Notes under the pieces: generated by a model | Database searches by the model: none | Told to the model about the DNA's origin: nothing | What the model saw: the letters and a program-made list of their open reading frames with translations, nothing else | Shown: positions 14,681 to 51,593 of the stretch, piece by piece | How the letters are laid out: each line of letters opens with the position of its first letter | Numbering within the stretch: the first letter of the stretch is position 1 | Program-made: the position numbers and the translations under genes | Source: a virus | Length of the DNA stretch: 64,000 nt | Direction: 5' to 3' (one strand) | Virus record (IMG/VR): IMGVR_UViG_3300017991_000003 | Location: 32,001-96,000 of that record

Positions 14681-15208
14681 TCAGTCTTCGCTAGCAGCTT
14701 GTTGTCGACGGACCTCCGCAGATGCAGCGTAGCAGAGCACCATCGCATCCGAGATGTCCTCGTGGGCTTTGGGCACACCATCAGGATAGCCCAAATCGGC
14801 CAAGTCATCGGAAAACCGTTCATTCATTCGAGCCCGCGCCCCGTCCTTATCCTTGGCCTTGACGCGACTGCGGGCCGTCTTAGCTGTGATCAGGACCGGC
14901 TCGTAACCCGCTCGGGCGACCTCCGACATCACGGCCCCGATAGCCATGGCGACCTTGCCCATGGATGATAGGTTCCTGGCGTGCTTGTTGAACTTCAAGT
15001 CCTCGATGATCACGTGATCCGGGTTCCACTTGGCGAGCACCTCCCGCACCCGCTTCCCTAGCTGCCCGATCCGAGCAGCGAAGGTGTCCTTGGCGCGCAA
15101 CCGAAGGAGCTCGACATGCAGCATCTCCCACTCATCGCTCTCATCCATCCGCATCAAGGCCACCCCTGTTTTGAGGCTGCCGCAGTCGAATCCCATTACA
15201 ACGGTCAT
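14681..15208 (-). CDS. RuvC-like Holliday junction resolvase
   Basis: GFDCGSLKTG, HVIIEDL and DAMVL segments align with the RuvC catalytic motifs. Confidence 0.8.
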   Translation of the reverse strand: MTVVMGFDCGSLKTGVALMRMDESDEWEMLHVELLRLRAKDTFAARIGQLGKRVREVLAKWNPDHVIIEDLKFNKHARNLSSMGKVAMAIGAVMSEVARAGYEPVLITAKTARSRVKAKDKDGARARMNERFSDDLADLGYPDGVPKAHEDISDAMVLCYAASAEVRRQQAASED

Positions 15209-15668: not shown

Positions 15669-17387
15669 TCAGATGATCGCGTTCCAGTCGACGATGACAC
15701 CGGCCTCGTCGAGCAAGTCGTAGAACCAGGTCACGACGTGGACGTAAGCACCTAGCGGGTCCTTGGGGTGGCGCTTCTGGGCCTCCTCGCGCTTGGCACC
15801 GAACTCGTCGGTCTTGGCCAGCTTGTGCTTCTTGCAGGTCTGGCCGAGCAGGCTGAGCAGGGCACGCTGCTGAGTGGAGTTGAGCTTCGAGTAGTCAGGG
15901 CGCACGTTCTCGTCGAACGGCTCCTCTTCTTCCTCTTCTTCCTCTTCCTCCTCCTCGCCAGGCTCCTCCTCGTCCTCCTCCTCAAGATCGTCGAGCTCCT
16001 CATCGCTGGGCTCTTCTTCGTCGAGGTCCTCCTCGTCGAGCTCCTCGTCTTCTTCCTCGTCAGGCTCCTCCTCGTCGAGGTCCTCGTCTTCTTCCTCCTC
16101 CTCGTCGAGGTCCTCCTCGTCGTCTAGCTCCTCCTCGAGCTCTTCTTCTTCGAGCTCCTCGAGCTCCTCGAGCTCCTCCTCTTCTTCCTCCACATCAGGG
16201 GCGGAGGCAGCAACCGGAGCCTCCCGCTTGCCGATCATGTCGTCAGGCGGGATAGGGGTGTGAAGAGGGCCGGAGACAGCGATAGGGAACGCGCGGATCG
16301 TGTCCTCGGGAACGCCGAGCGTATCCGCGGCCTCCGCGAGGCTGGTGGCCAGCACGTAGCGCAGCGTGTCGGAGCCGTCCTCGTCTTGGCTGTAGGCCTG
16401 GTACACGGCATGGACCGACGGGAGCCCGATATGCTCTTGCATGTAGTTGGGGTCACCATCGGGCGCGACGAAGACAGCGCTGACGCCCGGGCAGCAACGC
16501 TCAGCCGCTTCTTTGAGGCGCATCAGGCCCACGGCCCGCCACGCATCGTCAGCGCCTTCGGTCAGGTGCGAGGACGCGGCCACGAGGGCCTCGATCATCA
16601 CATCACCGTCGGTCGGCCAGCGGTCAGAGTCGTCAGTACCGGACGCGGCCCGCTTGAGCAGCTCCTGGTAGGAGTAGTAGAGGTCCAGCTGCGGCTGGGT
16701 GAGTCGGAGCTTGAGCTCGCGGTACTTGGCCTCGCCGGGCTCGAGCCCCTCGTCCTCCTCGTCGTTCATGTCCTGGATCGCCTGCTGCACCCGGCGCTTG
16801 AGGTCTGCGGAGCGCAGCGCGTGCGGGTGACCCAGGGGCTCGCAGAAGGGCAGCCACTCGGAGATGTTGTCCTCGTGGATAGCGCCGGCGCGGACGCCCG
16901 GGCTCAGCTCGACAAGCCGGTCCCAGACCACGTGGCGCAGGACGGCGGGGTTCAGGCTCAGCGACAGCAGCATGGCCCACTGGCCTGCTAGCTGGTTGGC
17001 CTTGGCCGGGTTCATGTTGAGCCGCATGTCCGCGACCTGCTCGAAGCTCTCGGCGGCCGGCAGATCACCGACAGGAGCCGCGACCTCGATCCACGCACCT
17101 TCTCGCAGGTTGAACAGGTGGCAGGCCAGCTCAGCAGTCTGAGCGCCTCGGGCCTGCTGGAGCTCGACACACCGGTCCAGACGCTTGATCGCCGGGAGCT
17201 TGCCGGTGCCGGCGAAGGGGGCTCGCTGCCCCTGTAGGAGGTTCTGGGTTGCGTACTCGGCGCGCTCTTGAGCCTCTTCGAGGGCCACCAGTGCGGCGTT
17301 CTCGGAGCCCGGCTGCGGTTGGGTAGTCGGCGCAGCAGCCGCTTTCTTCTTCGTGGCCTTCTTGGCGGCCTTCTTTTTCTTAGCCAT
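15669..17387 (-). CDS. Hypothetical protein with Lys-rich N-terminal tail and long polyacidic tract
   Basis: Start taken at MAKKKKAAKKATKKK (ATG 17385-17387); about 110 residues of nearly pure Glu/Asp/Leu. Confidence 0.65.
   Translation of the reverse strand: MAKKKKAAKKATKKKAAAAPTTQPQPGSENAALVALEEAQERAEYATQNLLQGQRAPFAGTGKLPAIKRLDRCVELQQARGAQTAELACHLFNLREGAWIEVAAPVGDLPAAESFEQVADMRLNMNPAKANQLAGQWAMLLSLSLNPAVLRHVVWDRLVELSPGVRAGAIHEDNISEWLPFCEPLGHPHALRSADLKRRVQQAIQDMNDEEDEGLEPGEAKYRELKLRLTQPQLDLYYSYQELLKRAASGTDDSDRWPTDGDVMIEALVAASSHLTEGADDAWRAVGLMRLKEAAERCCPGVSAVFVAPDGDPNYMQEHIGLPSVHAVYQAYSQDEDGSDTLRYVLATSLAEAADTLGVPEDTIRAFPIAVSGPLHTPIPPDDMIGKREAPVAASAPDVEEEEEELEELEELEEEELEEELDDEEDLDEEEEEDEDLDEEEPDEEEDEELDEEDLDEEEPSDEELDDLEEEDEEEPGEEEEEEEEEEEEPFDENVRPDYSKLNSTQQRALLSLLGQTCKKHKLAKTDEFGAKREEAQKRHPKDPLGAYVHVVTWFYDLLDEAGVIVDWNAII
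15921..16192. repeat. Low-complexity GAG/GAA/GAC codon tract encoding the polyacidic region
   Basis: Plus strand is CTC/TTC/GTC-rich with internal direct repeats. Confidence 0.8.
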
Positions 17388-18429
17388 GGGCGGGGGTCTT
17401 CTTCTTCTTGGTTCTTTTGTAGGGGAAGCAGTCAAGGCGGTTGCGGCATCGCTTGGCCTTGGCGGTGTTGCGGCTAGAGCAGGCCTTCGGGCCAGCTAGG
17501 GGCTGTCCAAGCTCTACGAGGCGATGGACAGAGTCGATGTAGGGGTCGACGACCATGGGCAGGAAGTCGGGGTCATAGGCGATCTCGTAGGCCCGGTCGG
17601 CAAGTCGGTCCCTGTCAAGATATAGCAACGAAGTGCCCTCACAGAGGTCAGGATCTAGCGGAAAGATTCCTTGACGCCCCTGCTCGACCAAGATGGCCGG
17701 GTAGAGCTTGCCTTGGTAGGTGTCCTTCTCCAGAGGGAGCGGGCCCTGCCGGGGCTTGAGCACGAAGGTTCCGGGCTCTTTGCCCCGGACGCGCGACATA
17801 CTGTCGAACTGGTCCCGCTCCTTGCTCTTCATCTCCAGCACTCGCCAGTGCCCGGTGGGCTTGATCCAGATACCGTCAGCACGGCCGCGGATCATCCACG
17901 CGTCACCGCGATTCTTGGGGTCGGGCCGACGAATGCGGATCTCCTCGTAGCGCCATCTGACACGCTCCCGGGCTAGGACCCGATCGCAGTTGTTCTCGTG
18001 GACTACCCCATCCGCATCACGGTAGGCGACGGTGTTGGTGCACACCTCCTCGGGCCTGAACCCTTCGACGACCTGGTGACAGCTCATACACCTCCACAGG
18101 CCCCAGAGGCGCCCGACGTCGCCTGTGATCTCAGGTAGGATCACGGACTGGAAGTGGTCATGAACAGCGTGCCCAGCTGCGAACAAGCGTAGCGCCTGGG
18201 GACTAAAGCCCTGAGCGTCGCCCCACATATCGTGGAGGCGCTTGAAAGCGTCTTGGACCATACACCCGTTGCAGAGGCTGCTTGGGTTGAAGGCTCTGGA
18301 GACATACCCCTCACGCTCTTCTCGACGGAGAAGCGCCTGGTCGATGGCCGGCGTCCAAGACTGATCGGCCTCGACCCTCGTCGTCATCTTGCAGATGAAG
18401 TCGACGATGTCTTGTGTGAAGGTGTTCAC
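17380..18429 (-). CDS. Putative PD-(D/E)xK-type nuclease-like protein with Cys clusters
   Basis: 349 aa; CNGC and CMSC pairs plus D...E-x-K-like RADGIWIK...VLEMKSK; weak assignment. Confidence 0.5.
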   Translation of the reverse strand: MNTFTQDIVDFICKMTTRVEADQSWTPAIDQALLRREEREGYVSRAFNPSSLCNGCMVQDAFKRLHDMWGDAQGFSPQALRLFAAGHAVHDHFQSVILPEITGDVGRLWGLWRCMSCHQVVEGFRPEEVCTNTVAYRDADGVVHENNCDRVLARERVRWRYEEIRIRRPDPKNRGDAWMIRGRADGIWIKPTGHWRVLEMKSKERDQFDSMSRVRGKEPGTFVLKPRQGPLPLEKDTYQGKLYPAILVEQGRQGIFPLDPDLCEGTSLLYLDRDRLADRAYEIAYDPDFLPMVVDPYIDSVHRLVELGQPLAGPKACSSRNTAKAKRCRNRLDCFPYKRTKKKKTPAHG

Positions 18430-18667: not shown

Positions 18668-19395
18668 GCGTAGTGTCTCTGTAGGTGGATGAAGGCGAGG
18701 GCTGCGGCTTCGGCAGCGTCGTACTCTTTGTCGATGTACAACCAGTTCTTGAAGCGGTTGTTGAAGGCTTGTCGATCCGGGTTTGACATGGCCCGCGCCA
18801 TCTCGGCCTCAAGCCTCGGGTCCCGAGCGGTCGGATCTAGGTTGTCGCGGCCAGGGCCTAGTAGCCCCTCCAAAGCTATGTAGAGGTGCCTCACGTGCCG
18901 GTGCTGCCCTAGGTCTGTGAAGTGGTCCTCAGGGCCTTGGTGCCCGTGAGATCCGGTCATCACGATCACCTGATCGAAGGACTCGTCTACCAAGGATCTG
19001 TAGGCCGTCCAGATGGCGCGAACCATGGTAGGGCCTCCTTTCATGAACCCTTGATAGATCAACGTGGTCAAGATTGATCGGTCGCGCAGAGCAACAGGGA
19101 TCTCACCTCCAGCTGATACAAACCCGGCCCACTCCTGCACCTGCACCGCTGTCTGTGCCATCCCTGCGATGAACAGAGCGGCGCTGGCCTGAGTACAAGG
19201 GATCTGCGACTCACCCGTACCCCCCGTCGCCTGGCCGTGGAGCACTAGCTCCCGGAGGCCTTGGATGCTATCCCCCGGTTCCCGGAAGACTCGAGCCTTC
19301 CACCCCCCGACGTTGTTGTTGATGTCGTCGCAGAGGGATTGAGCTAGGGTGCTCTTCCCGCTGCCGTCAGGGCCTTCGAGGATGATCTGGTGCAT
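18652..19395 (-). CDS. Thymidylate (dTMP) kinase-like protein
   Basis: P-loop IILEGPDGSGKST and downstream DRS...IYQG characteristic of thymidylate kinases. Confidence 0.65.
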   Translation of the reverse strand: MHQIILEGPDGSGKSTLAQSLCDDINNNVGGWKARVFREPGDSIQGLRELVLHGQATGGTGESQIPCTQASAALFIAGMAQTAVQVQEWAGFVSAGGEIPVALRDRSILTTLIYQGFMKGGPTMVRAIWTAYRSLVDESFDQVIVMTGSHGHQGPEDHFTDLGQHRHVRHLYIALEGLLGPGRDNLDPTARDPRLEAEMARAMSNPDRQAFNNRFKNWLYIDKEYDAAEAAALAFIHLQRHYAWNKS

Positions 19396-19895
19396 CAGGT
19401 GGTCTGGGCGATTACGCGTTGGAGAAGGGAGCCATGAGTCACGACCAGCTCGTGCTTGGCGGTCAGGGGATCCAGCTTGGCCTTGAAGGTCAAGCCAAGG
19501 GACCCGAGCATCCCAGTGCGCTGTCGCTCCAAGTCCTCTTGGATGACCTCTACGGGGATGCGGGTCTCCTTGGTGGTGATGTCGAAGTACCGAAACGGCC
19601 CGTCAACGAACTGCTCGAGCTCCTCAGTCATGGGCATGATCAGGAGATCAGCGGGGAAACCCTCAAACACGCGATACGTGTTGTGGTCCGTGAAGTGGTA
19701 GGCGAGGGCGATGTTCGGGCGCGCTAGCTTGCGCGCGTCTTGCACCGCCTTCTCCCACCACCGAGGCTGGAACCGGAAGTCGGTCCCTGTTCTCGACTTG
19801 GCCTCGACAAACCACCCGTAAGGGGTGCCGAGGTCTCCTCGGAAGAACGAGCCGCAGCCAGATCCGGGGACCCGCTGCAAGCCGGTCTCTCGCAT
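19395..19895 (-). CDS. Hypothetical protein, possible PD-(D/E)xK nuclease fold (start uncertain)
   Basis: GDLGTPYGWFVEAKS resembles a D...E-x-K core; start set at internal Met to avoid overlap with the recombinase gene. Confidence 0.45.
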   Translation of the reverse strand: MRETGLQRVPGSGCGSFFRGDLGTPYGWFVEAKSRTGTDFRFQPRWWEKAVQDARKLARPNIALAYHFTDHNTYRVFEGFPADLLIMPMTEELEQFVDGPFRYFDITTKETRIPVEVIQEDLERQRTGMLGSLGLTFKAKLDPLTAKHELVVTHGSLLQRVIAQTT

Positions 19896-19914
19896 CAGGC
19901 GAAGCTCGTGCGCG

Positions 19915-21525
19915 TCACCCGTCCTCTTGTTCGAGGCCGGCCTCGAGCGCATCGAGGGGGTCACCTCCCTCTGCTTCTTCTGAATCTTCGGCAGCCCCAG
20001 CGGCTGGCTGATGTCCTTTGAGTCGGTCATGGGCTTCGTGAATGAGATCCTGGAGAGGGTCGTCGAAAGGCCCATAGAGATGGGCCTCTGCGTCGAGGTG
20101 GCCTCGGAAGGTCCGCGGCATGATTGCGGCAGCCAGCGGATAGCGCAGGCGATAACCGATGTCGGGCCGGCTCAGGAAGGCCTTGATGTCCGCGATCTTG
20201 GTGAAGGTGCGGCCGAGGATCTCATACCCCCGCGAGGTCTTCTTGAACCACCTGTCATCAGGCGGCAGCTCCCAAGCGCCCTCAGATAGGGCTTTCAGGA
20301 GCTCAAACACGCGCGCACCCTCGTCGGTCTCGCCGGCTTCGTAGTGGACACGGTCAAACAGACGATCCTTGAGGAACAGCCGAGCCTGGGCGCTAGCGTT
20401 GGTGCCGCCCCCGGACGCCTTGTCCTTCTTCATCGTCATCGTCATCTCCGCCATGGCGGCGGGCTCACGGTAGCCGCCGTCCCACGGGTTGTAGCGGGTG
20501 CGGATCTCCATGTTCTGCATGAGCGCGTACTTGAGGGCGTTACCGCCCGACGCGATCTTGGAGGGACCGCCGTAGCCCCCGGGGCCCGACTGGATGTTGG
20601 CGCGCCACTGGTTGGTCTGGATGAACGTGGGCATCACGCCCGACTGGTTCCAGGCCTCGTTTTGCGCGCTGATCAGCTTCGGGTACAGGCGGGACAGCTC
20701 ACGAGCCCGGGACGCGGTCTGCTTACGACCCGCCAGGTCCTCGTCAATCGCAGCCATGGCCACACTGTCGAGGATGATCAGATCGGCAGCGCCGTTCTTG
20801 ATCAGGTGGGAAGAGAGGATCTCGACCTGGTTCAAGGACGTGATGCGGGCCACAGCTACTGTCGAATCCGGGCTGATGAGTAGGCCCTCTTCGACCTCCT
20901 CGTACTCAGCCATCGGATCGCTCATGTCCACACGATCCGCGATCTTGAACCCCCAGGACTGTGCCCATAGCGGGTCGAAGTCACCCTCGACATCGATGAA
21001 GAGGACGGTCGACACATCGTTGGCACCGCAGCCGCAGCGGATCACGTTATCCCGCTCACCCAGGTCATCATGGAAGGTGAGGATCGGAGTCATGCAGCGC
21101 CGGCAAGTGCGCTGGAAGGAGCCGGCCAGTAGGTAGCACATGAGCGACTTGCCCACATGCTCCGGGCCAATGATCTGCGTCCGGGTGCCGATGGCCATGC
21201 GGATGTTCATGTCCATCTCGACCAGTCCCGTGAACAGGAGCCGGCGGCGGAACTCAGCTGCGGCCTGCGTCGCTCGCCAAGAACCCGTGGGCTGCTTGTT
21301 GAGCTCGACTGTCGCAGACTTCATCCCGTCGCTGAACCGAGCGCTGGTGCGTGTGTCGCGCGGGCTCTTCACTCCGGCCGTCAGCGCCCGCTTCGGAGCG
21401 TCGTCCTTGGCTGCGGCCTTCTTGGTCCGCTTCTTGGCCTTCTTCTTGGTCGCCTTCTTCTTGGTGGCCTTCTTGGTCACCTTCTTTGTGGCTTTTTTGG
21501 CGACCTTCTTCTTCTTGGCCGCCAT
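19915..21525 (-). CDS. RecA-like recombinase with Lys-rich N-terminal tail
   Basis: Walker A IIGPEHVGKS, Walker B LIILDSVAMA, GGNALKYA matching RecA GGNALKFYA; N-terminal AKKKKVAKKATKK tail. Confidence 0.6.
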   Translation of the reverse strand: MAAKKKKVAKKATKKVTKKATKKKATKKKAKKRTKKAAAKDDAPKRALTAGVKSPRDTRTSARFSDGMKSATVELNKQPTGSWRATQAAAEFRRRLLFTGLVEMDMNIRMAIGTRTQIIGPEHVGKSLMCYLLAGSFQRTCRRCMTPILTFHDDLGERDNVIRCGCGANDVSTVLFIDVEGDFDPLWAQSWGFKIADRVDMSDPMAEYEEVEEGLLISPDSTVAVARITSLNQVEILSSHLIKNGAADLIILDSVAMAAIDEDLAGRKQTASRARELSRLYPKLISAQNEAWNQSGVMPTFIQTNQWRANIQSGPGGYGGPSKIASGGNALKYALMQNMEIRTRYNPWDGGYREPAAMAEMTMTMKKDKASGGGTNASAQARLFLKDRLFDRVHYEAGETDEGARVFELLKALSEGAWELPPDDRWFKKTSRGYEILGRTFTKIADIKAFLSRPDIGYRLRYPLAAAIMPRTFRGHLDAEAHLYGPFDDPLQDLIHEAHDRLKGHQPAAGAAEDSEEAEGGDPLDALEAGLEQEDG

Positions 21526-21953
21526 CAGGCTCCTTCGTCAGCCCCCTCAGTGAGCTGCTCGGTGTGGAACAGCGGGTCCTTGCCGACCGACTGTAGGACG
21601 CGGTTGAAGATGTCGCGGTTGGCCACGACGCAGCGGTGCTGGAACTCCTCGACGATGCCCTCCATGTTCTCGGCAATCTCTTCCCGGGAAGCAGGCACGT
21701 TCACGGTGACGTGAACCTCATGGCTCGAGTAGGCGCCGTAGACCTCGGAGATGCGGGCGTGGTGGCCGACCGAGATCGATCCGACATTAGCGGGGTTGGT
21801 CATGATGTGGCGGGTGTCGATGATGTGGGTGTTGCTATAGCGGAGGACGTACTTGGTGCGTCCTCGCGGGATGGCTCGAATCGTCACCTCGAGGGTGACC
21901 GGGCGGGCTGTGATCTCACAGCCCTGGATAGTCGATGACATGGCAGCGGGCAT
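21525..21953 (-). CDS. Hypothetical protein (start uncertain)
   Basis: GC3-rich codons checked by hand; the first 38 nt overlap the helicase gene. Confidence 0.5.
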   Translation of the reverse strand: MPAAMSSTIQGCEITARPVTLEVTIRAIPRGRTKYVLRYSNTHIIDTRHIMTNPANVGSISVGHHARISEVYGAYSSHEVHVTVNVPASREEIAENMEGIVEEFQHRCVVANRDIFNRVLQSVGKDPLFHTEQLTEGADEGA

Positions 21954-23379
21954 CCTTGTAGGAGGCTAGCCGGCGGCGCCCGAGCGCGGCCAGAACGGGG
22001 GAGTTGGTGTGGACCGGGTCCACCACGATCGGGACCGGCTTCCCGTCGACCTCTCGCTCGATACGCCCTCGGGTCTGGCGAACATCACGACGGGGAGAGG
22101 CGAGTACAGCGGCATCCTTCCATGGTACATCAAGGGCCTTGTCAGCAATGCCGTAAGTGCAGAAGGTGACCGGCTTGTCGAGGGAGGCGTCCCGGCCGAC
22201 GCGCCCAACCTTGGCATGCTTACCGAAGAACAACCCGCTCGAGCCCGGATGCCGGGCTTCCCATAGCTCGTGCAGGTGGATGAGCTGCTTCTGGAACTGG
22301 CCGAATACCATGACCTGACGCCCCTTTTGGAACAGGTGGCCGACGATGTTAACCAACCAGGCTGAGTACGCAGGGTCAGCGATGACCGTCTGAATGTAGG
22401 CCGTGTAGTTGTGCTTGTCCTTCCAGGCGACGTCCGGGGGAGTCACCATCGGGTTGAGCGGGGGCCGGCCCGGGCAGCTAGTGGGAAAGCCGGCGAAGTC
22501 CGGGCACTCACGGCATCCTGCGAGTGTTGTCATCCCGACCTTCGCCTTGCACCACGCCATCCGGTAGTCGTCGTACTCGACGAGGGTCGTAACTGGGTAG
22601 CGGTAGATCGTGGCAGGGACCAGCTTGGCCGCGGCTTCGACCACGTGGTTACCCAGCGCCGCCTTGAACACCCACTCGAGCCCATCCCGGCGATCCGGGG
22701 TGGCGGTCAGGGCGATGCTCCAGGTGAAGGCTAGGTTCGTGAGGCTGCCGAAAAAGCAAGGTGCTGAGAACACATGCGCCTCGTCGACGAGGAGCATGTC
22801 GAGTTCCATCGGGTCTTCGGCCCACTCTTGTCGCCAGAGGCTCTGACCGACCATGATCGTGAACCGAGCTCGCGTGTCTCGACGCATCTGCCCGTGGCCT
22901 CCGCCGAGGATCTCGACGGTGGCCTCGGGCAGGAAGCGCTCGATCGCACCTTTCCACTGCTCGGCGATGTCGACCTGATCGACCAGCACGCCGACCCGCG
23001 CCGCTTGCAACGCGTCAGCGCAGTAGAGGCCCATGACTGTCTTGCCAGTGCCGCAATCAGCCCGCAGAAGCAGCCCCTCCTTGCGAGGCAGCTCATGTAG
23101 GATCTCACTGACCGGCGTCTTCTGGTTGTCTCTCAGCTCGCCCTTGAACTGCCGCTGTGGGTGCTCTTGGATCGGAGCCCGAGCCGGCAGCGCTCGGGTG
23201 AAGTTCTCTAGCCAGAAGCGAGGTACAAGCAGGGAGCCGTCACTGAACTCATGCCACAACGGGAAGGGCTCTCGATCTCCTTCAGGGCGCGCGATAAGGT
23301 CTTGGTCCCGATCAAAGGGCCACAAGGCAGGATCGCCGAGGATCTCGGCAGGGACGTGGACGAGGCCGCGTAGTTTCAT
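21916..23379 (-). CDS. Superfamily 2 DNA helicase (DEAH-type)
   Basis: Motif I CGTGKT, motif II LLVDEAH, motif III ALTATP. Confidence 0.7.
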   Translation of the reverse strand: MKLRGLVHVPAEILGDPALWPFDRDQDLIARPEGDREPFPLWHEFSDGSLLVPRFWLENFTRALPARAPIQEHPQRQFKGELRDNQKTPVSEILHELPRKEGLLLRADCGTGKTVMGLYCADALQAARVGVLVDQVDIAEQWKGAIERFLPEATVEILGGGHGQMRRDTRARFTIMVGQSLWRQEWAEDPMELDMLLVDEAHVFSAPCFFGSLTNLAFTWSIALTATPDRRDGLEWVFKAALGNHVVEAAAKLVPATIYRYPVTTLVEYDDYRMAWCKAKVGMTTLAGCRECPDFAGFPTSCPGRPPLNPMVTPPDVAWKDKHNYTAYIQTVIADPAYSAWLVNIVGHLFQKGRQVMVFGQFQKQLIHLHELWEARHPGSSGLFFGKHAKVGRVGRDASLDKPVTFCTYGIADKALDVPWKDAAVLASPRRDVRQTRGRIEREVDGKPVPIVVDPVHTNSPVLAALGRRRLASYKDARCHVIDYPGL

Positions 23380-25024: not shown

Positions 25025-26971
25025 CTAGCCGTGGCCGACTTCGTCGCCTGGAACCCGTAGACCGCCGCCCTTAGTCGCCAGGTCTCCGGGGGTCCGATCC
25101 TTGTCTTGAGTGATTTCGGCATCCTCGTTCTCCATATTGATGGCTTGAGGTTCAACACCCATCTCCTTGAGGAAAGGGCTGTCGATGTCGTATGTGGTGG
25201 TGTAGAGGTGGTTGATGGCGCGGGTAATCGCCACATAGGCGAGTCTCCGCTCCTCATCCTCACGGCCGTTCTTGTGTGGAATGAGCCCATCACAGAACCC
25301 GGCGATGAAGACAGTGGGGAACTCGAGTCCCTTGGCCCGGTGAATCGTGAGCAGCTGCACACGGGACCGGCCATCTTGGCGAGACTTGCTCTCCTGCTCG
25401 ACGAGATTGACGTGGGTCAGGAACTCCTTGATCGTGCGGAAGCGCGGCAAGGTCTGCATTAGTACCCGAGACACGGCATCCATCATCTCGTCAGGATCCT
25501 TGCGCTGGTTGCGGGCAGCCAGTTCACGAATGAACCCAGCAAAGCCGAGGCTCTGCCAGATGTGGTGGCCGATGTTGGCCGGCGTGTGACCCTCCTTGAC
25601 CAACATGTCCAGGTCCTGGAGGAGCGTACACAGAGATCCCGCGGCCTGCTGTTGCCGGAACCCTCCCCGCGTAGCTGCCATGACTTGCATGACAGATGCG
25701 GCAGAGCCGTCCGACTTGCCCATGCACTCAGCCACCCAGTCCCGACGCAGAAACCGGTTGGGCTTGTTGAGCACCCACCGCAGCGACGTGATGTCGTTCG
25801 GGCGGGCTGCTAGCCGAAGGTAGCTGACCAGGGTGCGGATCTCGGTACGACCGTAGAACCCGCCTTGATCATCGATGACCTCATAGGGGATCTTCCGCAT
25901 GCTGAGCTCATCCTCGAATGCGCCTGACTGGGCGTTCGTTCGATAGAGCACCGCGATGTCAGAGGCCATACCTCCGGCATCAAGGATCTCCTCGATCCGA
26001 TCGGCCGTGTACTGCGCCTCCTCGACAGGATGCTTCACACGGACCGAGGTGATAGCGCCCTCGCCTGTGAGCGTCGGTCGGAGGACCTTGTCCACTCGCA
26101 GGTCGTTGCACTTGATCAGCTGGTTAGCCGCGTCAAGGATCGGCGCCTGAGACCGGAAGTTCTCTTCCATCGAGATGGCAACCCCTCCGTAGATCTCAGG
26201 GAACTCGATGATGAAACGCGGGGAGCATCCCCGGAACCCATACACCGACTGATCATCGTCACCGACGACCACGAGGTTGCCTTTCTCGAGCTTCTTCAGG
26301 ATCTCGGCCTGCGCCGGGTCAGTGTCCTGGAACTCATCGACCAGGATGTGATCCAGTCGATTCTTGAGCACGTCGACCAGTTCCGGGTCATCTCGGAAGA
26401 GCTGCAAGCAGTCGATGATCATGTCATCGAACAGGTACTTCCCGTTCTTCACGATCGACTGATGGAGCGCATGCAGGAGCTCGACATACCCCGGGCCTAG
26501 GTTCATATGCGCGTGAATGCGGTCAGTCATCGCAAGCCACGCGTCGGGGTGAAACCCGTTGAGCTTGAGCAGGCTGATGTCCCGCAGCATGTCGGCAGGG
26601 ACGCCAACGGCGTTCGGGGTTTCTCTGAGCAGCTCCTCGGCCCACTTGATGAGCAACCACTCCTCCCGACCCTCCACGACTTCGCGGTTTTGGTACTGGT
26701 TCGGGCAGCGGCGATTGAGAACCTTGAAGCAGAAGCTGTGGAAGGTGCCAATGAAGCTGCTGGGGGTGAGGGGCACCCCCACACGCTTGTTGAGACTCTC
26801 TGCCGCCTTCTTACTGAAGGTCAGCACCAACTGGCTCTCGCCAGCCTCGGCATGCTTACGAATGCGCTCGACCAGGACGGTCGTCTTGCCGCTGCCGGCC
26901 ACGGCGAAGATAACGAGGTTCGAGCCCTCGTGATCAATCGCCTTCTTCTGCGCCGCTGTGAAGGAGGTCAA
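25025..26971 (-). CDS. UvrD/Rep-family (SF1) DNA helicase
   Basis: N-terminal AAQKKAI...FAVAGSGKTT Walker A in UvrD-like context; 648 aa. Confidence 0.85.
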   Translation of the reverse strand: MTSFTAAQKKAIDHEGSNLVIFAVAGSGKTTVLVERIRKHAEAGESQLVLTFSKKAAESLNKRVGVPLTPSSFIGTFHSFCFKVLNRRCPNQYQNREVVEGREEWLLIKWAEELLRETPNAVGVPADMLRDISLLKLNGFHPDAWLAMTDRIHAHMNLGPGYVELLHALHQSIVKNGKYLFDDMIIDCLQLFRDDPELVDVLKNRLDHILVDEFQDTDPAQAEILKKLEKGNLVVVGDDDQSVYGFRGCSPRFIIEFPEIYGGVAISMEENFRSQAPILDAANQLIKCNDLRVDKVLRPTLTGEGAITSVRVKHPVEEAQYTADRIEEILDAGGMASDIAVLYRTNAQSGAFEDELSMRKIPYEVIDDQGGFYGRTEIRTLVSYLRLAARPNDITSLRWVLNKPNRFLRRDWVAECMGKSDGSAASVMQVMAATRGGFRQQQAAGSLCTLLQDLDMLVKEGHTPANIGHHIWQSLGFAGFIRELAARNQRKDPDEMMDAVSRVLMQTLPRFRTIKEFLTHVNLVEQESKSRQDGRSRVQLLTIHRAKGLEFPTVFIAGFCDGLIPHKNGREDEERRLAYVAITRAINHLYTTTYDIDSPFLKEMGVEPQAINMENEDAEITQDKDRTPGDLATKGGGLRVPGDEVGHG

Positions 26972-31841: not shown

Positions 31842-32302
31842 CTGTTGGTGTTCGGGGGGTTGATGTTGTCACACTGCTCACAGGTCCAGGTGGCGCCGGC
31901 AGGTACTTCCCCCTCAGCCTTGCGGATCTCTTCGATCTCCTTGCGGAAGGCCTCCTCGTCAGCGGCCCACCACTGGCCGGGCGCCTGCCCGTCGAGCTGG
32001 AGGTATCCCATGATCTGGACGCCCTCGCTCAGGTAGCGCTTGATCACCGCCCGCCGGGCCTTGGATTGCATCTCACCCGGGACCAGGATTCCGAAGGTCA
32101 GAAGCGCCCGGTAAGCCTCGTTGAGATGATCGTAGAGCGCTGCCCTGATATTGCTGTGCTCGGTTCGAGCGGCATCACCTAGCCGCTGATTGCGGCTGAC
32201 ATGGGCGAGGGCGTAGTCCAGCGCTACGATGCGAGACTCGCAGTCCTTGATGCGCTCGAGGCAGGTGCTGAAAGCCTGCTCGATGATTGGTGTGTCGGTC
32301 AT
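31811..32302 (-). CDS. Hypothetical zinc-ribbon protein
   Basis: Start set at internal Met giving ATGA overlap with the upstream gene stop; C-terminal CEQCDNINPPNTNRCVNCQ. Confidence 0.5.
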   Translation of the reverse strand: MTDTPIIEQAFSTCLERIKDCESRIVALDYALAHVSRNQRLGDAARTEHSNIRAALYDHLNEAYRALLTFGILVPGEMQSKARRAVIKRYLSEGVQIMGYLQLDGQAPGQWWAADEEAFRKEIEEIRKAEGEVPAGATWTCEQCDNINPPNTNRCVNCQEAFA

Positions 32303-41632: not shown

Positions 41633-44600
41633 ATGGCCGATAACGTCCAGCTCTACGACGCGCATCTAAACCTCTGGACCCTCAGGACATCCGAGGACAC
41701 AGAAATCCACACGCCGCACCACGTGTCGCGGCTGGCGGACGGGGAGGGGCGCTTCTACAGGCCCGGACGGCCGGTACCTGTGTCGATCTACGGGACGGAC
41801 GGGGTCGAGATCAACATCGAGGCCGGCTCGATCGCTGTCAGCACAGACCACAACGAGGACTCAGTAGCGGTCTTCGGGTCGTCGACCCCTGAGGGGCTGG
41901 AAAACTTCAGGTCGCTGGTGGTGGACCCCCAGGGGCACCTCCAGACCACAGTGGTCTCAGCGCCTGGGGTGGAGCCCGTCGGGGACTCGCCCGACGCGGG
42001 GCAGCTAGGTACGGTCATCCTAGGGGTCCAGGTAGGGGCAACGCCAGCTAGTCAGGTCACGGGGGACGGTCGGACAGCCCCTCTGATCATGGACGATCGG
42101 GGCCGGCTCTTCGTCTCTTTCGGCAACTCCGTCGCGGTTCTGCCCTTCACGCAAAAGGGTGACCTACTTACTTATGACGGATCTGACGAAGTTGTCCTGG
42201 GCCCGACGGTCGACGACGCGCTTCTGACACTGGACTCCAGTACCAGTACCGGCCTCAGGTGGGTGAGCCCGGTGACGAGCTCCCCCAGCCCCGTGCTCTT
42301 CCTACGCGAGGATCTAACATGGGCTCTGCCCTCAGCAGGGGCACCGGGCGGGGCTGCGGGCGGAGACTTGGGCGGGACCTATCCGAACCCGTCTGTGGTC
42401 GCTATCCAAGGGATTTCCACTTCTGCGGCTGCGCCAACGCCTGGGCAGACCTGGGTGTACACCGGCAGCGCTTGGAGTCCGGGAAGCCCGGCTACCGGAG
42501 CTGCTACGGACCACGGGACGCTCACAGGGCTCCTCGACGATGATCACACCCAGTACATCCTGGCTGATGGCTCTCGAGACTTCTCAGGCTCAATCGGCAT
42601 GGGTGGGAATGAGATCACGGATGTGGCCTCTCCTATCCTCGTATCCTGGGCAGCTAACAAGGGTTACGTTGATGATCAGATCACCGCGTCCGTCATCACG
42701 GACCACGGCGGGCTAGGCGGGCTCGGGGATGACGACCATACCCAGTACGTGTTGGTGGCTGGCACTCGTGCGTTCACGGGCGATCAGAGCCTAGGCGGTA
42801 ACAAGATCACGAGTCTGGGGTCCCCGACCACCGCAAGCGATGGAGCCAACAAAGGTTACGTCGACGCTAACGTGGTCACGGACCACGGCGCTTTGATCGG
42901 GCTGGGGGATGATGACCACACCCAGTACATCCTGACTGCGGGGACTCGAGCCTTCAGTGGTAACCAGAGCCTAGGCGGCAACCTGATCACAAGCCTAGGC
43001 TCGCCTACTACCGCAAGTGGTGGTGCTAACAAGGGTTACGTTGACGCGGCTATCACGTCGGCAGTGATCACGGATCACGGAGGGCTTGGCGGCCTGACGG
43101 ACGACGACCATACGCAGTACGTCCTGGTCGCAGGTACTCGAGCGTTCACAGGCAGCCAGAGCCTGGGCGGTAACCTGATCACGTCGCTAGGGTCTCCTAC
43201 TGTTGTAAGTGACGCAGCTAACAAAGGTTACGTTGATGCGCAGATCCCGACGAGCCTACCCCCTAGCGGGGCTGCTAGTGGTGATCTAGGCGGCACGTAC
43301 CCCGGGCCTACTGTGGTGGCCATTCAAGGCACCGGAGTCAGTGCAAACGCTCCAAGTACTGGTGATGGCCTGGTTTACACCGGAGCGGCTTGGAGTCCGA
43401 CCGCGGTCTATCGACCTGGCGGGACGGATGTGGCTGTGGCAGACGGGGGCACCGGGGCGTCGGACGCGTCCACGGCGCGTAGCAATCTAGGCCTGACCAT
43501 CGGGCTCGACGTCCAAGCCCACTCCGCAGTTCTTGACGCTACAACGGCCAGTTACACAACCGCGGCCGAGGGTAAGCTCTCGGGCATCGAGACCAACGCT
43601 GATGTCACGGACACAGCCAACGTGACGGCCGCTGGCGCTGTCATGATCGGCACAACGGCCGCGGCCGGGGACCTGAGCGGTACCTACCCGAGCCCGACGG
43701 TCGTGGCCATTCAGGGGACTGGCGTCTCGAGCACTGCGCCGAGCTCTGGGCAGGCCCTGATCTACTCCGGCACTGTCTGGAGCCCCAGCACGCTCCCCAG
43801 CGGGGTGACGGACCACGGGGCCCTGACCGGACTCGGAGACGACGACCATACCCAGTACATCCTGGTTGGTGGCACTCGCGCCTTCACGGGCAACCAGTCG
43901 ATGGGCGGCAACCTGCTCACGTCGTTGGGGAGCCCGGTGGCGGTAACAGACGCAGCTAACAAGGGTTACGTCAATGCCTCGATCACCGCGGCCGTCGTCA
44001 CGGACCACGGGGCCCTTGACGGGCTGGCCGATGACGACCACACCCAGTACCACAACGACGCTCGGGCGCTGACGTGGTTGGGGACGCGCGACACAGATGA
44101 CCTGGACCCGAGCGCCACCCGTCTCTACATGAGCCCGGGTGAGCGCACCAAGCTCGCCGGGATCGAAGCGCTTGCCGATGTGACCGATGCGGCCAACGTG
44201 GCCGCGGCCGGCGCTGTCATGGTCGGTGACGCTGCGGGCGGTGATCTTAGCGGTACCTACGCAAACCCGTCCGTGGTCGCGATCCAGGGTACGGGTTGCT
44301 CTTCAGCAACGCCGACCGCCGGCCAGACCTGGGTCTACTCCGGGTCCCAGTGGAGTCCTGGCTCACCCGCTGTTGGTGGCGCGTCAGATCACGGAACCCT
44401 GACCGGGCTGGGCGACGACGACCACACTCAGTACATTCTTGTTGACGGTACACGGGCCTTCACAGGCGCAGTTAGTCTCGGTGGGAGCCAGATCAACAGC
44501 CTGGCTTCGCCCACGCTCCCAGCAGATGCAGCCAACAAGGGCTACGTCGACGACCAGATCCCGACGAGTCTACCCCCTAGCGGGGCAGCGTCTGGCGACC

Positions 44601-45409
44601 TTGGTGGGACCTACCCGGGCCCAGACGTGGTGGCTATCCAGGGGACCGCGGTCAACTCGGCGACGCCGACGACGGGTGAGGCCCTGCTCTACTCGGGAAC
44701 GCAGTGGAGCCCTGGGCCGATCAACTTCCTCGAGCTCAACGACGTCGATCCCACAGGCCTGACCAACCTCGACCTGTTCTACTACAGCTCGGCGTCGGGG
44801 ACTATCGTCCGGTCTAGCGGCCTCACGACCTACGCGTTCTACACGCACAGCGGATCGCACATCCACGGACAGTACGACGCAATCGACGGGGATCAGCTAT
44901 CGATCACCCAGCCGGGCGTCAACTACTCCCCGACGACCGACGCGACATACGGCACCAACACGGCGCACCTCGCTGCCCATCTGCGGGGTATCGGTCTGGT
45001 CCTGGAGGATGTCAGTCCCGCGGTCACCAAGCTCGCCGGGATCGAGGCGGGCGCTGAAGCCAACGACGTTCAGACCAAGAGCATCACGATCGAGGCGCCG
45101 ACCACGACGGAAGACATCTCGTTCTTCTACGCTCCGGTAGCGATGACGATCTCAGAGATGGTCACGGTCCTGGTGGGCTCTCCTACGCCGTCCCTAGCGT
45201 GGACGCTCCGGCACAGCACCGACAGGAGCGCTGTGGGCAACGAGGTCATCACCGGGGGATCCACGGCGAATAGTACGACGACCGGTAACGTGCTGACCTC
45301 CTTCAACGACGCAACGGTCCCAGCCAACTCCTTCCTGTGGGTTGAAACGGCGAGCCCCAGCACGAACGTGACGAGCTTCCAGCTCAGCGTTGAGTACACC
45401 GACGACTGA
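41633..45409 (+). CDS. Tail fibre / receptor-binding protein with internal repeats
   Basis: 1258 aa; seven copies of a unit containing TDHGxLxGLxDDDHTQY...GANKGYVD and five copies of a second unit DLxGTYPxPxVVAIQGT; AGGGGAGGA ribosome-binding site before ATG. Confidence 0.7.
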   Translation: MADNVQLYDAHLNLWTLRTSEDTEIHTPHHVSRLADGEGRFYRPGRPVPVSIYGTDGVEINIEAGSIAVSTDHNEDSVAVFGSSTPEGLENFRSLVVDPQGHLQTTVVSAPGVEPVGDSPDAGQLGTVILGVQVGATPASQVTGDGRTAPLIMDDRGRLFVSFGNSVAVLPFTQKGDLLTYDGSDEVVLGPTVDDALLTLDSSTSTGLRWVSPVTSSPSPVLFLREDLTWALPSAGAPGGAAGGDLGGTYPNPSVVAIQGISTSAAAPTPGQTWVYTGSAWSPGSPATGAATDHGTLTGLLDDDHTQYILADGSRDFSGSIGMGGNEITDVASPILVSWAANKGYVDDQITASVITDHGGLGGLGDDDHTQYVLVAGTRAFTGDQSLGGNKITSLGSPTTASDGANKGYVDANVVTDHGALIGLGDDDHTQYILTAGTRAFSGNQSLGGNLITSLGSPTTASGGANKGYVDAAITSAVITDHGGLGGLTDDDHTQYVLVAGTRAFTGSQSLGGNLITSLGSPTVVSDAANKGYVDAQIPTSLPPSGAASGDLGGTYPGPTVVAIQGTGVSANAPSTGDGLVYTGAAWSPTAVYRPGGTDVAVADGGTGASDASTARSNLGLTIGLDVQAHSAVLDATTASYTTAAEGKLSGIETNADVTDTANVTAAGAVMIGTTAAAGDLSGTYPSPTVVAIQGTGVSSTAPSSGQALIYSGTVWSPSTLPSGVTDHGALTGLGDDDHTQYILVGGTRAFTGNQSMGGNLLTSLGSPVAVTDAANKGYVNASITAAVVTDHGALDGLADDDHTQYHNDARALTWLGTRDTDDLDPSATRLYMSPGERTKLAGIEALADVTDAANVAAAGAVMVGDAAGGDLSGTYANPSVVAIQGTGCSSATPTAGQTWVYSGSQWSPGSPAVGGASDHGTLTGLGDDDHTQYILVDGTRAFTGAVSLGGSQINSLASPTLPADAANKGYVDDQIPTSLPPSGAASGDLGGTYPGPDVVAIQGTAVNSATPTTGEALLYSGTQWSPGPINFLELNDVDPTGLTNLDLFYYSSASGTIVRSSGLTTYAFYTHSGSHIHGQYDAIDGDQLSITQPGVNYSPTTDATYGTNTAHLAAHLRGIGLVLEDVSPAVTKLAGIEAGAEANDVQTKSITIEAPTTTEDISFFYAPVAMTISEMVTVLVGSPTPSLAWTLRHSTDRSAVGNEVITGGSTANSTTTGNVLTSFNDATVPANSFLWVETASPSTNVTSFQLSVEYTDD
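42507..43250 (+). repeat. Four tandem in-frame copies of a ~186-bp (62-aa) repeat in the fibre gene
   Basis: DDDHTQY codon strings recur at about 42537, 42731, 42911 and 43101. Confidence 0.85.
43801..44560 (+). repeat. Three further copies of the same 62-aa repeat interleaved with AIQGT-motif units
   Basis: DDDHTQY codon strings at about 43845, 44033 and 44413. Confidence 0.8.
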
Positions 45410-50198: not shown

Positions 50199-51593
50199 CT
50201 AGTAGGCAGCCTGACCACCGCTGCTCGCCATGTCCTGGACAGGGCCGAGCTGCGCGAACCGCATGTCGTAGAGATCCCATTGAACACGATAGGGTTGGTC
50301 GACCGCACCGTCTCGGACCTTGCCGAGCTTCATGTCGATGACGCGGGCGTTGTTACCGGCATCCTTCGGCGGTACCAGGAAGACGAGGTTGTTGGAGTCG
50401 TGCGAGATGCTCTGGCTGAAAGCCACAGCATCAGCGTTCGACCGGGCCAGCGTGCCTTCATTTCGGCGCAGCTGCGTGGCCAGCATGTAGTGACGGTTGG
50501 ACATCAGCGTATGCAGACGCATCTGCCGCATGTTGCCCTCCACCTTCTGCCAGCGCTCCTTACCAGGGCCCTCCATGTAGTAGAAGCCGTCGATCAAGAC
50601 CAGGTCCGCGCCAAACTCCTCAGCCTGTGCGGCAACCTGATCAGGAGTCGTAGCCTGGTTAGGGCCCACGATGCGCAGGTTCTCACCAACGCGAGCGTGC
50701 GGCCCGTCTGCTTTCAGGCTACGCAATGCCTCGAAGTAGGCCGCCTTCTCCACGTCACTTAGCTTCTGCTTCATGAGGCGGTTGAAGCTAGTGCTCGAGA
50801 GCACCGCGGCTTGGCGTCGAGCCACATCGATGGGTGCCATCTCCAGACTGACGATCAAGACCCGAGCGCGGGCGGCGTCCTTCTGCTCCTGCGTCCACGC
50901 CGGGATGTCGGGTGGGCGGTGGAAGATGTAGGGATCTCCCAGGAGGCCGGCGGCACTGTTGAGCACGATGAACCAAGTCTTGCCGAGGCCGGTAGGAGCC
51001 ACACAGCTGGTGATCTGCGCAGGGTGCCAGCCCCCAAGCTGTTCCTGAATGAACAGGAACGGACAAGGGATGCCGAGCTTCACGCCGGCCAGCCGATCGT
51101 TGTAGTCCTGCTCGAGATCCTCAGCGTACTCTCGGAAGTCCTTGATCTCCGTCTTGTGTGCCGAGTACCTAGCTTGCAACGTATGAGCGTACAAGGACAT
51201 CGCGTCCTTGATGTCGAACGGGTCGGTGCGCTCGGTCAGCTGCTTGTGAAGATCCTGAAGGCTCTCTAGCACATCTACACGCACCGCCTCCTTAGCGACT
51301 TCGTCGTAGAGAACCGAGATGCTCGCTTCCGGGATCTCAGTACCAGCCAAGATCGTGGGAAGCTCAGGCCAGGCGCGCTGCGCCGTGTCAGGCGTAGGAA
51401 GCTCGTTGTACTGTGCTCGGTACCCGACGACCCACTCGATGATCTCCGTCATCGGCTCTTGAAAGAACCCGGGGTTGAGTCCGTTCTTGGCGACGTGGTG
51501 GTCGAAGGCGGCTAGGTTCCGGTCACTCAGGATCTTGGTCAGGAAGAGAGCCTCGACCCTGTCTCGAGAGTTGACGTTGGTGAACCCGGTCAC
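50199..51593 (-). CDS. DnaB-like replicative DNA helicase
   Basis: Walker A APTGLGKT, SLEM motif VLIVSLEM, LVLIDGFYYM and LATQLRRNEG segments. Confidence 0.75.
   Translation of the reverse strand: MTGFTNVNSRDRVEALFLTKILSDRNLAAFDHHVAKNGLNPGFFQEPMTEIIEWVVGYRAQYNELPTPDTAQRAWPELPTILAGTEIPEASISVLYDEVAKEAVRVDVLESLQDLHKQLTERTDPFDIKDAMSLYAHTLQARYSAHKTEIKDFREYAEDLEQDYNDRLAGVKLGIPCPFLFIQEQLGGWHPAQITSCVAPTGLGKTWFIVLNSAAGLLGDPYIFHRPPDIPAWTQEQKDAARARVLIVSLEMAPIDVARRQAAVLSSTSFNRLMKQKLSDVEKAAYFEALRSLKADGPHARVGENLRIVGPNQATTPDQVAAQAEEFGADLVLIDGFYYMEGPGKERWQKVEGNMRQMRLHTLMSNRHYMLATQLRRNEGTLARSNADAVAFSQSISHDSNNLVFLVPPKDAGNNARVIDMKLGKVRDGAVDQPYRVQWDLYDMRFAQLGPVQDMASSGGQAAY

Follow-up and report, generated by a model that had tools for sequence, protein, structure and literature searches.

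The recombinase gene and its relation to RecA

The DNA analysed here (the window) is a 64,000-nucleotide stretch of the IMG/VR virus record IMGVR_UViG_3300017991_000003 (positions 32,001 to 96,000), which carries on its minus strand an open reading frame (ORF) of 536 residues for a RecA-type recombinase. Inside its ATPase core the protein contains an insert of about 30 residues with four conserved cysteines (Cys4), a cluster that, judged by its conservation and by a structural model, is probably metal-binding. The gene and its parts are as follows.

19915..21525, minus strand: gene for the RecA-type recombinase with the Cys4 insert (ORF, 536 residues)
21391..21525, minus strand: Lys-rich N-terminal tail, residues 1-45, with AKKK-type repeats and K/R at 23 of 45 positions, histone-H1-like
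21145..21168, minus strand: Walker A motif (P-loop) GPEHVGKS, residues 120-127; G120 and K126 invariant in 137 of 137 relatives
21010..21108, minus strand: insert TCRRCMTPILTFHDDLGERDNVIRCGCGANDVS, residues 140-172, about 30 residues between the Walker A helix and strand beta2
21028..21105, minus strand: putative metal ligands C141-x2-C144 ... C164-x-C166, the conserved Cys set
20986..21009, minus strand: strand beta2 (TVLFIDVE), which contains the catalytic Glu; its alignment partner in RecA is IDAEHALD, with E180 corresponding to E96 of E. coli RecA
20761..20781, minus strand: Walker B motif LIILDSV, residues 249-255; aligns with VVDSVAAL of RecA
20527..20616, minus strand: NQ sensor, L2 DNA-binding loop and GG motif, TNQWR...SGGNALKY, residues 304-333; aligns with NQIR...TTGGNALKF of RecA
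20419..20433, minus strand: MKKDK, residues 365-369; matched to VVKNK of RecA through the family consensus veKnK
19918..20037, minus strand: acidic C-terminal tail, with D/E at 13 of the last 40 residues and low model confidence (predicted local distance difference test, pLDDT, 55-67)

We assign the protein to the RecA-type recombinases because of its Pfam, family-profile and Foldseek matches together with its conserved motifs. The Pfam RecA family (PF00154) is matched with 32.2 bits, the gathering score being 27 (expectation value, E, 9.6e-8), and the best match among PHROG families is PHROG 97 ('UvsX-like recombinase', 2.4e-18). A sequence search of PDB with the single protein returned bacterial RecA only, at an E of about 5e-5 and over the region from Walker B to L2. 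A profile of the family, built from an alignment of 137 sequences with about 20-25% identity to the query (alignment A3), matches E. coli RecA over its full length at an E of about 1e-100, whereas Rad51, RadA and UvsX are reached at only 1e-17 to 1e-23. The values for T4 UvsX (3io5) and for another phage UvsX (9gbg) are 9.5e-17 and 3.5e-21, respectively. This profile comparison places the window protein closer to bacterial RecA than to UvsX of T4. A recombinase of the T4 UvsX type was rejected on these E-values and on the lack of a UvsY match among the neighbouring ORFs in Pfam or PHROGs, the label of PHROG 97 being its sole support.

The predicted structure leads to the same family. An AlphaFold model computed from the 137-sequence alignment reached a pLDDT of 92 and a predicted template modelling score (pTM) of 0.89; a run from a four-sequence alignment (pLDDT 35) was discarded. 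All of the top 50 PDB matches of this model in Foldseek are bacterial RecA, the best with a template modelling (TM) score, normalised to the target, of 0.73-0.76, and the structural alignment with RecA extends over about 400 columns at about 17% identity. The nearest viral predicted structures bear the name 'RecA/RadA recombinase [uncultured Caudovirales phage]'. The three-part architecture of RecA (N-terminal element, core and C-terminal domain) is present in the model, and the C-terminal part of the protein matches the RecA C-terminal domain by profile as well as by Foldseek.

Residues needed for catalysis and DNA binding are retained throughout the family. E180 is kept in 135 of the 137 relatives, D253 and S254 of Walker B in 135 and 124, and N305, G327, G328 and K367 are each at least 90% conserved in the family alignment. 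ASRAR (residues 271-275) aligns with GLAAR in L1 of RecA, and we take MKKDK to be the equivalent of the trans-acting K248 and K250 of E. coli RecA. The window protein thus shares with bacterial RecA (2REB, 3CMW, 7JY6) the fold, the Walker A and B motifs, the catalytic Glu, the NQ sensor, L1 and L2, the KxK motif and the acidic C-terminal tail, and it is presumed to share the formation of ATP-dependent filaments on single-stranded DNA (ssDNA) and strand exchange. It differs in being viral, in having a Cys4 module where RecA has the turn REGKT, and in its further insertions (536 residues) and Lys-rich N-terminal tail; E. coli RecA has about 352 residues. Sequence and model together indicate a complete RecA-type recombinase that is presumably active.

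Both tails are strongly charged. The composition of the Lys-rich N-terminal tail suggests that it is probably an unstructured, DNA-binding extension, and basic N-terminal tails also occur in the relatives P0002 and P0003 and in the IMG/VR relatives L008, L009 and L011. The acidic C-terminal tail is probably disordered according to the model and may, by analogy, correspond to the acidic tail by which E. coli RecA regulates itself. Together, the basic and acidic tails may constitute a charge-based autoregulatory or DNA-tethering arrangement.

Position, structure and conservation of the Cys4 insert

The first-pass annotation of this DNA, which was made from the letters alone, had described a RecA-like recombinase with a cysteine cluster placed between Walker A and Walker B and absent from canonical RecA. 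The two motifs and the string CYLLAGSFQRTCRRC...RCGCG are present as it quoted them, and the sequence between the motifs reads ...SLMCYLLAGSFQRTCRRCMTPILTFHDDLGERDNVIRCGCGANDVSTVLFIDVE.... The family assignment given above agrees with that description, as does the position of the insert: in the profile alignment, E. coli RecA shows a clean gap of 29 columns between AAAQREGKTC and AFIDAEHALD. Because this gap falls exactly at the insert site, we regard the segment as a true insertion that canonical RecA lacks.

The protein has only five cysteines (residues 130, 141, 144, 164 and 166), all of which lie inside 37 residues. Random placement would produce such a span with a probability of about 1e-4, and the Cys frequency is 11% in the insert and 0.65% elsewhere, a 17-fold enrichment. 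Conservation of the cysteines in homologs had been set beforehand as a test of the cluster. C141, C144, C164 and C166 are invariant in three close homologs (60-64% identity), found by a word-indexed protein search, and among the 137 distant relatives a Cys occupies these positions in 125, 126, 122 and 125 sequences, respectively, about the same level of conservation as that of the catalytic residues. Of the 137, 125 have a Cys4-type motif. The resulting share of about 91% derives from the best 150 matches to a profile that itself contains the insert, and is therefore biased upward and is not the fraction among all phage RecAs. One member of the cluster as first described does not belong to it: C130 lies in the Walker A helix, is not conserved in the close homologs and is replaced in the relatives by A, C, L, S or T, mostly by Ala. 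The other four stand. An origin by chance or as an artefact of gene calling was ruled out by conservation and synteny.

The form of the two Cys pairs is also conserved to a large extent. Almost all first pairs are CxxC, most often within Q-[RK]-x-C-R-x-C, with an Arg after the first Cys in 89 of the 137 relatives. As their second pair, 99 sequences have CxC, 11 have CxxC and seven have CC, and a few relatives have CxxxxC or a His in place of the third ligand; such ligand variants are typical of zinc sites. The spacer between the pairs often bears the hairpin signature TPI...xTGE, or TPI...(D/E)xTGE. In the model, in which the insert has a pLDDT of 96-98, a first knuckle (C141-C144) is followed by a strand (149-151), a turn, a second strand (161-163) and a second knuckle (C164-C166), so that the modelled insert is zinc-ribbon-like, with two Cys knuckles flanking a beta-hairpin.

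The loop that holds the cysteines is also a hot-spot for insertions. In some relatives (P0045, P0068, P0086, P0130 and P0136), segments of 90-140 residues are nested between the Cys pairs; the loop of P0136 contains eight Cys and possibly two zinc sites, and in P0118 and P0137 one Cys is replaced by His. An intein or a homing-endonuclease remnant was rejected from general knowledge and without a dedicated search, the insert having 30 residues and no splicing or nuclease motifs.

Architectures that resemble the module are known from other nucleotide-binding proteins. As in zinc ribbons built into P-loop enzymes, such as the adenylate kinase lid, two Cys knuckles surround a beta-hairpin set into a loop of a P-loop nucleoside triphosphatase, and in lid-type modules, too, the four ligands have been replaced or lost together in some lineages. 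In contrast to the solved zinc modules, the insert has no detectable sequence homology to any of them, and the second half-site of the window family is mostly CxC, not CxxC. A search of PDB with a profile of the insert alone gave no significant homolog among solved structures; matches to PRDM9 were discarded as due to its repeated TGEKP linker, and a match to Hsp33 was not significant (E=0.21).

RadA/Sms, to which the first-pass annotation had likened the insert, is likewise a recombination protein with a RecA-fold ATPase and a Cys4 zinc-binding element. RadA/Sms proteins have a separate N-terminal CxxC...CxxC finger, the motif KNRFG and a Lon-like C-terminal domain, and they form hexameric helicase rings. 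In the window protein, by contrast, the sole Cys cluster (residues 141-166) lies within the protein, downstream of Walker A, no N-terminal finger is present, KNRFG is absent from the sequence, and there is no Pfam match to Lon or ChlI. The likeness is thus superficial.

Distribution of the insert and the surrounding recombination genes

When 1.84 billion cluster representatives were searched exhaustively with a profile, 598 clusters were found with E<=1e-3, of which 89 had E<=1e-10. The first-pass annotation had treated the insert as a peculiarity of one protein. It is instead clade-wide: of the 150 best matches, at least 125 (clusters at 50% identity) bear it. By sequence comparison, the Cys4 insert is a hallmark of a large, deep and diverse clade of viral RecAs. 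The relatives' clusters that were looked up (n=10) come from metagenome sources only, and the sole source name given is 'RecA/RadA recombinase'.

The motif QRTCRxCxTPI occurs in six IMG/VR contigs of 43-195 kb, one of which carries the window RecA while the other five encode confirmed insert-bearing RecAs. The RecA locus of the window (a segment of 17.4 kb, with the RecA 100% identical) also lies in the IMG/VR viral contig IMGVR_UViG_3300018080_003942 (91.6 kb), and the same RecA was found on a contig of 193 kb. In 185,579 species-representative genomes the same motif has seven matches, none of them in a RecA and all due to chance, and these therefore provide no clue to a host or a prophage. 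The GC content is about 62% throughout.

Among 50,697 phage records, tblastn searches with the window protein and with an insert-bearing consensus found nothing, and searches with the relatives P0034 and P0020 found many RecA-like genes. The insert is absent from the five RecA-like proteins of cultured phages that we inspected as nearest to P0034 or P0020 (Moorella MTATph1, Rhizobium RHph_TM16, Vibrio LV6, Aeromonas HJ05 and Rhodobacter RcTiptonus), and it is absent from the solved structures of RecA, Rad51 and UvsX according to the PDB profile and Foldseek comparisons. To our knowledge, a Cys4 module at the turn from helix C to strand beta2 of RecA has not been reported. We found no description of a Cys4 or zinc insert in the RecA core in the open-access literature: a comparative genomic study of jumbo phages (PMC7824862) and a study of divergent oceanic viral RecAs (PMC12153180) mention the diversity of viral RecAs and not the insert. 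The group of insert-bearing viral RecAs is apparently undescribed.

The gene lies within a conserved phage recombination module, a block of genes on the minus strand.

25025-26971, minus strand: UvrD-type helicase
21916..23379, minus strand: superfamily 2 (SF2) helicase of the ResIII type (Pfam ResIII, 2.2e-16; PHROG 16), syntenic in six related loci
21525..21953, minus strand: ORF of 142 residues upstream of RecA, with an internal AAGGAG Shine-Dalgarno sequence and a stop codon that overlaps the start of RecA (TGATG)
19395..20075, minus strand: Holliday-junction-resolvase-like ORF directly downstream of RecA (PHROG 2002, 4.6e-10), syntenic in the related loci L007, L008, L011 and L013
18652-19395, minus strand: thymidylate-kinase-like P-loop protein
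17380-18429, minus strand: Cas4-like exonuclease, matching Cas4-type PHROG families
14681-15208, minus strand: RuvC-like resolvase

In related contigs with RecAs at only 37-64% identity, the order of helicase, small ORF, RecA, resolvase, kinase-like protein, exonuclease and RuvC is largely kept, and this synteny extends to phages with RecAs at only 37-40% identity. Genes for a DNA polymerase, a primase and a DnaB-like helicase (50199-51593) follow further along the window. The arrangement of a phage recombinase of the RecA superfamily beside an SF2 helicase recalls UvsX with UvsW, and it differs from the T4 UvsX system (3IO5) in that the window family profile is far closer to bacterial RecA and no UvsY homolog was recognised.

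The ORF of 142 residues has no match in Pfam or PHROGs, and its homologs occupy the same position in L007, L008, L010 and L011. By the TGATG overlap it is translationally coupled to RecA, and it is a candidate for a recombination mediator or a partner resembling SSB, the protein that binds single-stranded DNA. On the other side of RecA, the longest frame of the resolvase-like ORF overlaps the 3' end of the recombinase gene by about 160 nucleotides here and by about 90-180 nucleotides in L007, L008, L011 and L013. The PHROG match of this ORF begins near residue 41, and translation may begin internally, at M43 (19949) or at M61 (19895), which would remove most of the overlap.

Three further observations concern the neighbourhood. 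The segment 14681-26971 of the minus strand represents an unusually complete recombination toolkit, with two resolvase-like genes, an exonuclease and two helicases, that has been kept across related uncultured phages. The SF2/ResIII helicase has a Cys-rich stretch of its own (...WCKAKVGMTTLAGCRECPDFAGFPTSCPG...), which might be another metal-binding insertion. Finally, an ORF of 1258 residues at 41633-45409 on the plus strand resembles PHROG families of tail fibres and head decoration at many places, in weak and repeat-like matches of which only one short stretch (to a head-decoration family) is individually significant; this suggests a low-complexity, possibly collagen-like structural protein.

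Possible roles of the module

We consider it reasonably probable that the protein is the phage's own RecA strand-exchange ATPase with a structural zinc ribbon beside its polymerisation interface, a reading for which we infer the identity of the metal, the location in the filament and the role of the module. The recombinase would form ATP-dependent filaments on ssDNA for recombination-dependent replication and repair, and would cooperate with the adjacent helicase, resolvases and exonuclease. The module of about 30 residues, in the turn between the Walker A helix (helix C) and strand beta2, would most likely bind one structural Zn(II) and, by P-loop topology, would project from the core sheet at its end opposite the ATP site. 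The next strand after the insert is expected to line the polymerisation pocket, which in Rad51 and RecA filaments receives the FxxA motif or the N-terminal strand. In RAD51, Met158 and Ile160 presumably lie on the strand AMYIDTE directly after the loop, and we take them to be equivalent to L175 and I177 here. The FxxA pocket of human RAD51 is defined by these two residues among others (PMC4855620). Because the strand after the insert would line this pocket, the zinc module may sit beside the interface between protomers, where, as a rigid platform, it could stabilise filament contacts or specialise them, or could offer a docking site for a phage partner such as the 142-residue protein or the SF2 helicase.

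Several points, among them two other readings of the module itself, weigh against this interpretation. The window protein scores 29.6 bits with the NCBIfam model TIGR02012, far below the equivalog cut-off of 325.3 bits; by its sequence it is a divergent viral relative and not an equivalog of cellular RecA, so that functional equivalence with cellular RecA is assumed. The N-terminal polymerisation helix is short and modelled with lower confidence (pLDDT 76-80). Between their two Cys pairs, the relatives have anything from about 5 to 93 residues (median 18), and the Cys4 motif is missing from 12 of the 137. Six of these 12 have the canonical short RecA loop and group with one another. Two further short-loop proteins, P0101 and P0103, each have a zinc-type nearest neighbour, the remaining close neighbours of P0103 being mixed. 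P0106, P0125 and P0088 keep the insert without a Cys4 site and have zinc-type nearest neighbours; P0106 and P0125 are without any Cys, and P0088 has two, both in the Walker A helix. P0144, whose neighbours are mixed, also keeps the insert without the motif. With so variable a spacer, and with the ligands dispensed with in a few relatives, the module cannot be essential to the core chemistry of strand exchange. Ligand loss among the relatives is all-or-none, and because the four ligands are lost together they behave as a unit, which counts in favour of a metal site.

On these grounds, the module could be a mere stabilising staple, that is, a metal clamp that closes an insertion-tolerant loop and has no role towards the filament, DNA or a partner. 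The adenylate kinase lid, which is held by a Cys4-bound zinc in Gram-positive bacteria and by hydrogen bonds in E. coli, offers an analogy, and Rad51 and RadA tolerate slightly longer loops at the insert site. The variable spacer, the additional segments nested in some relatives, and the relatives with an insert devoid of Cys or with the canonical short loop would all be expected of a staple. The hairpin signature and the Arg that follows the first Cys are not, and their conservation suggests selection on the surface of the module rather than on a clamp alone; moreover, the module persists across a very deep clade at about 20% identity. We therefore regard a role as a staple only as possible but somewhat unlikely.

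At the other end, the zinc ribbon may be a functional module for specificity or regulation at the polymerisation interface, a proposal that we make tentatively and hold to be unlikely in this strong form. It could keep phage filaments apart from host RecA, preventing mixing as well as capture by RecX, DinI or LexA; it could bind a dedicated mediator, for which the coupled 142-residue ORF would be a candidate, or the adjacent SF2 helicase; or it could make filament assembly switchable by redox state or zinc.

The four cysteines could also bind iron, as a rubredoxin-like Fe or an iron-sulphur (Fe-S) centre, or form an Hsp33-like redox zinc site, which would make the protein a recombinase responsive to oxidative stress or metals. 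Cys4 sites in DNA-repair enzymes are often Fe-S centres, and the neighbouring exonuclease (17380-18429) belongs by its matches to the Cas4 type. The redox switch of Hsp33 has the same two pair types in the opposite order (CxC...CxxC), and Hsp33 was, at its non-significant E-value, the sole zinc-centre-like match of the insert profile in PDB. The geometry of a CxxC knuckle, a hairpin and a second knuckle, with about five residues between the pairs in some members, is instead that of a classic mononuclear zinc ribbon, the replacement of a ligand by His in some members is more typical of zinc, and the insert profile has no significant homology in PDB to an Fe-S or Hsp33 domain. Iron or redox-active zinc thus seems improbable. 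Least of all do we expect a RecA-fold ATPase with another job (a branch-migration helicase like RadA/Sms, an annealase like Sak4 or a ring like KaiC or DnaB), which is very improbable: the weak similarity of the individual protein to RecA (E of about 1e-5 to 1e-7), the superficially RadA/Sms-like zinc motif and a PHROG label that reads UvsX-like and not RecA speak for it, and are opposed by the full three-part architecture at TM scores of 0.73-0.76, by the conserved L1, L2 and KxK motifs, by the missing KNRFG and Lon-like domain, by a length of 536 residues with RecA-type N- and C-terminal regions that rules out a core-only recombinase of the Sak4 or RadB kind, and by the separate DnaB-like helicase of the phage.

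The favoured reading, a viral RecA with a structural zinc ribbon near its polymerisation interface, would add to an enzyme that has been studied intensively and of which, together with Rad51 and UvsX, no solved structure has a metal-binding module in the ATPase core. The insert is apparently a widespread and undescribed structural elaboration of this very well-known enzyme, and it defines a deep and diverse clade for which metagenomes are the only source, with phage contigs as long as about 195 kb. Even if the module is a staple only, it would still be a clean clade marker for annotating the diversity of viral RecAs. If it tunes filament assembly or recruits partners, the clade might be a source of recombinases with altered properties for isothermal amplification (recombinase polymerase amplification, RPA) or genome engineering, and the module would give a new handle on how viruses carry out recombination-dependent replication independently of their hosts.

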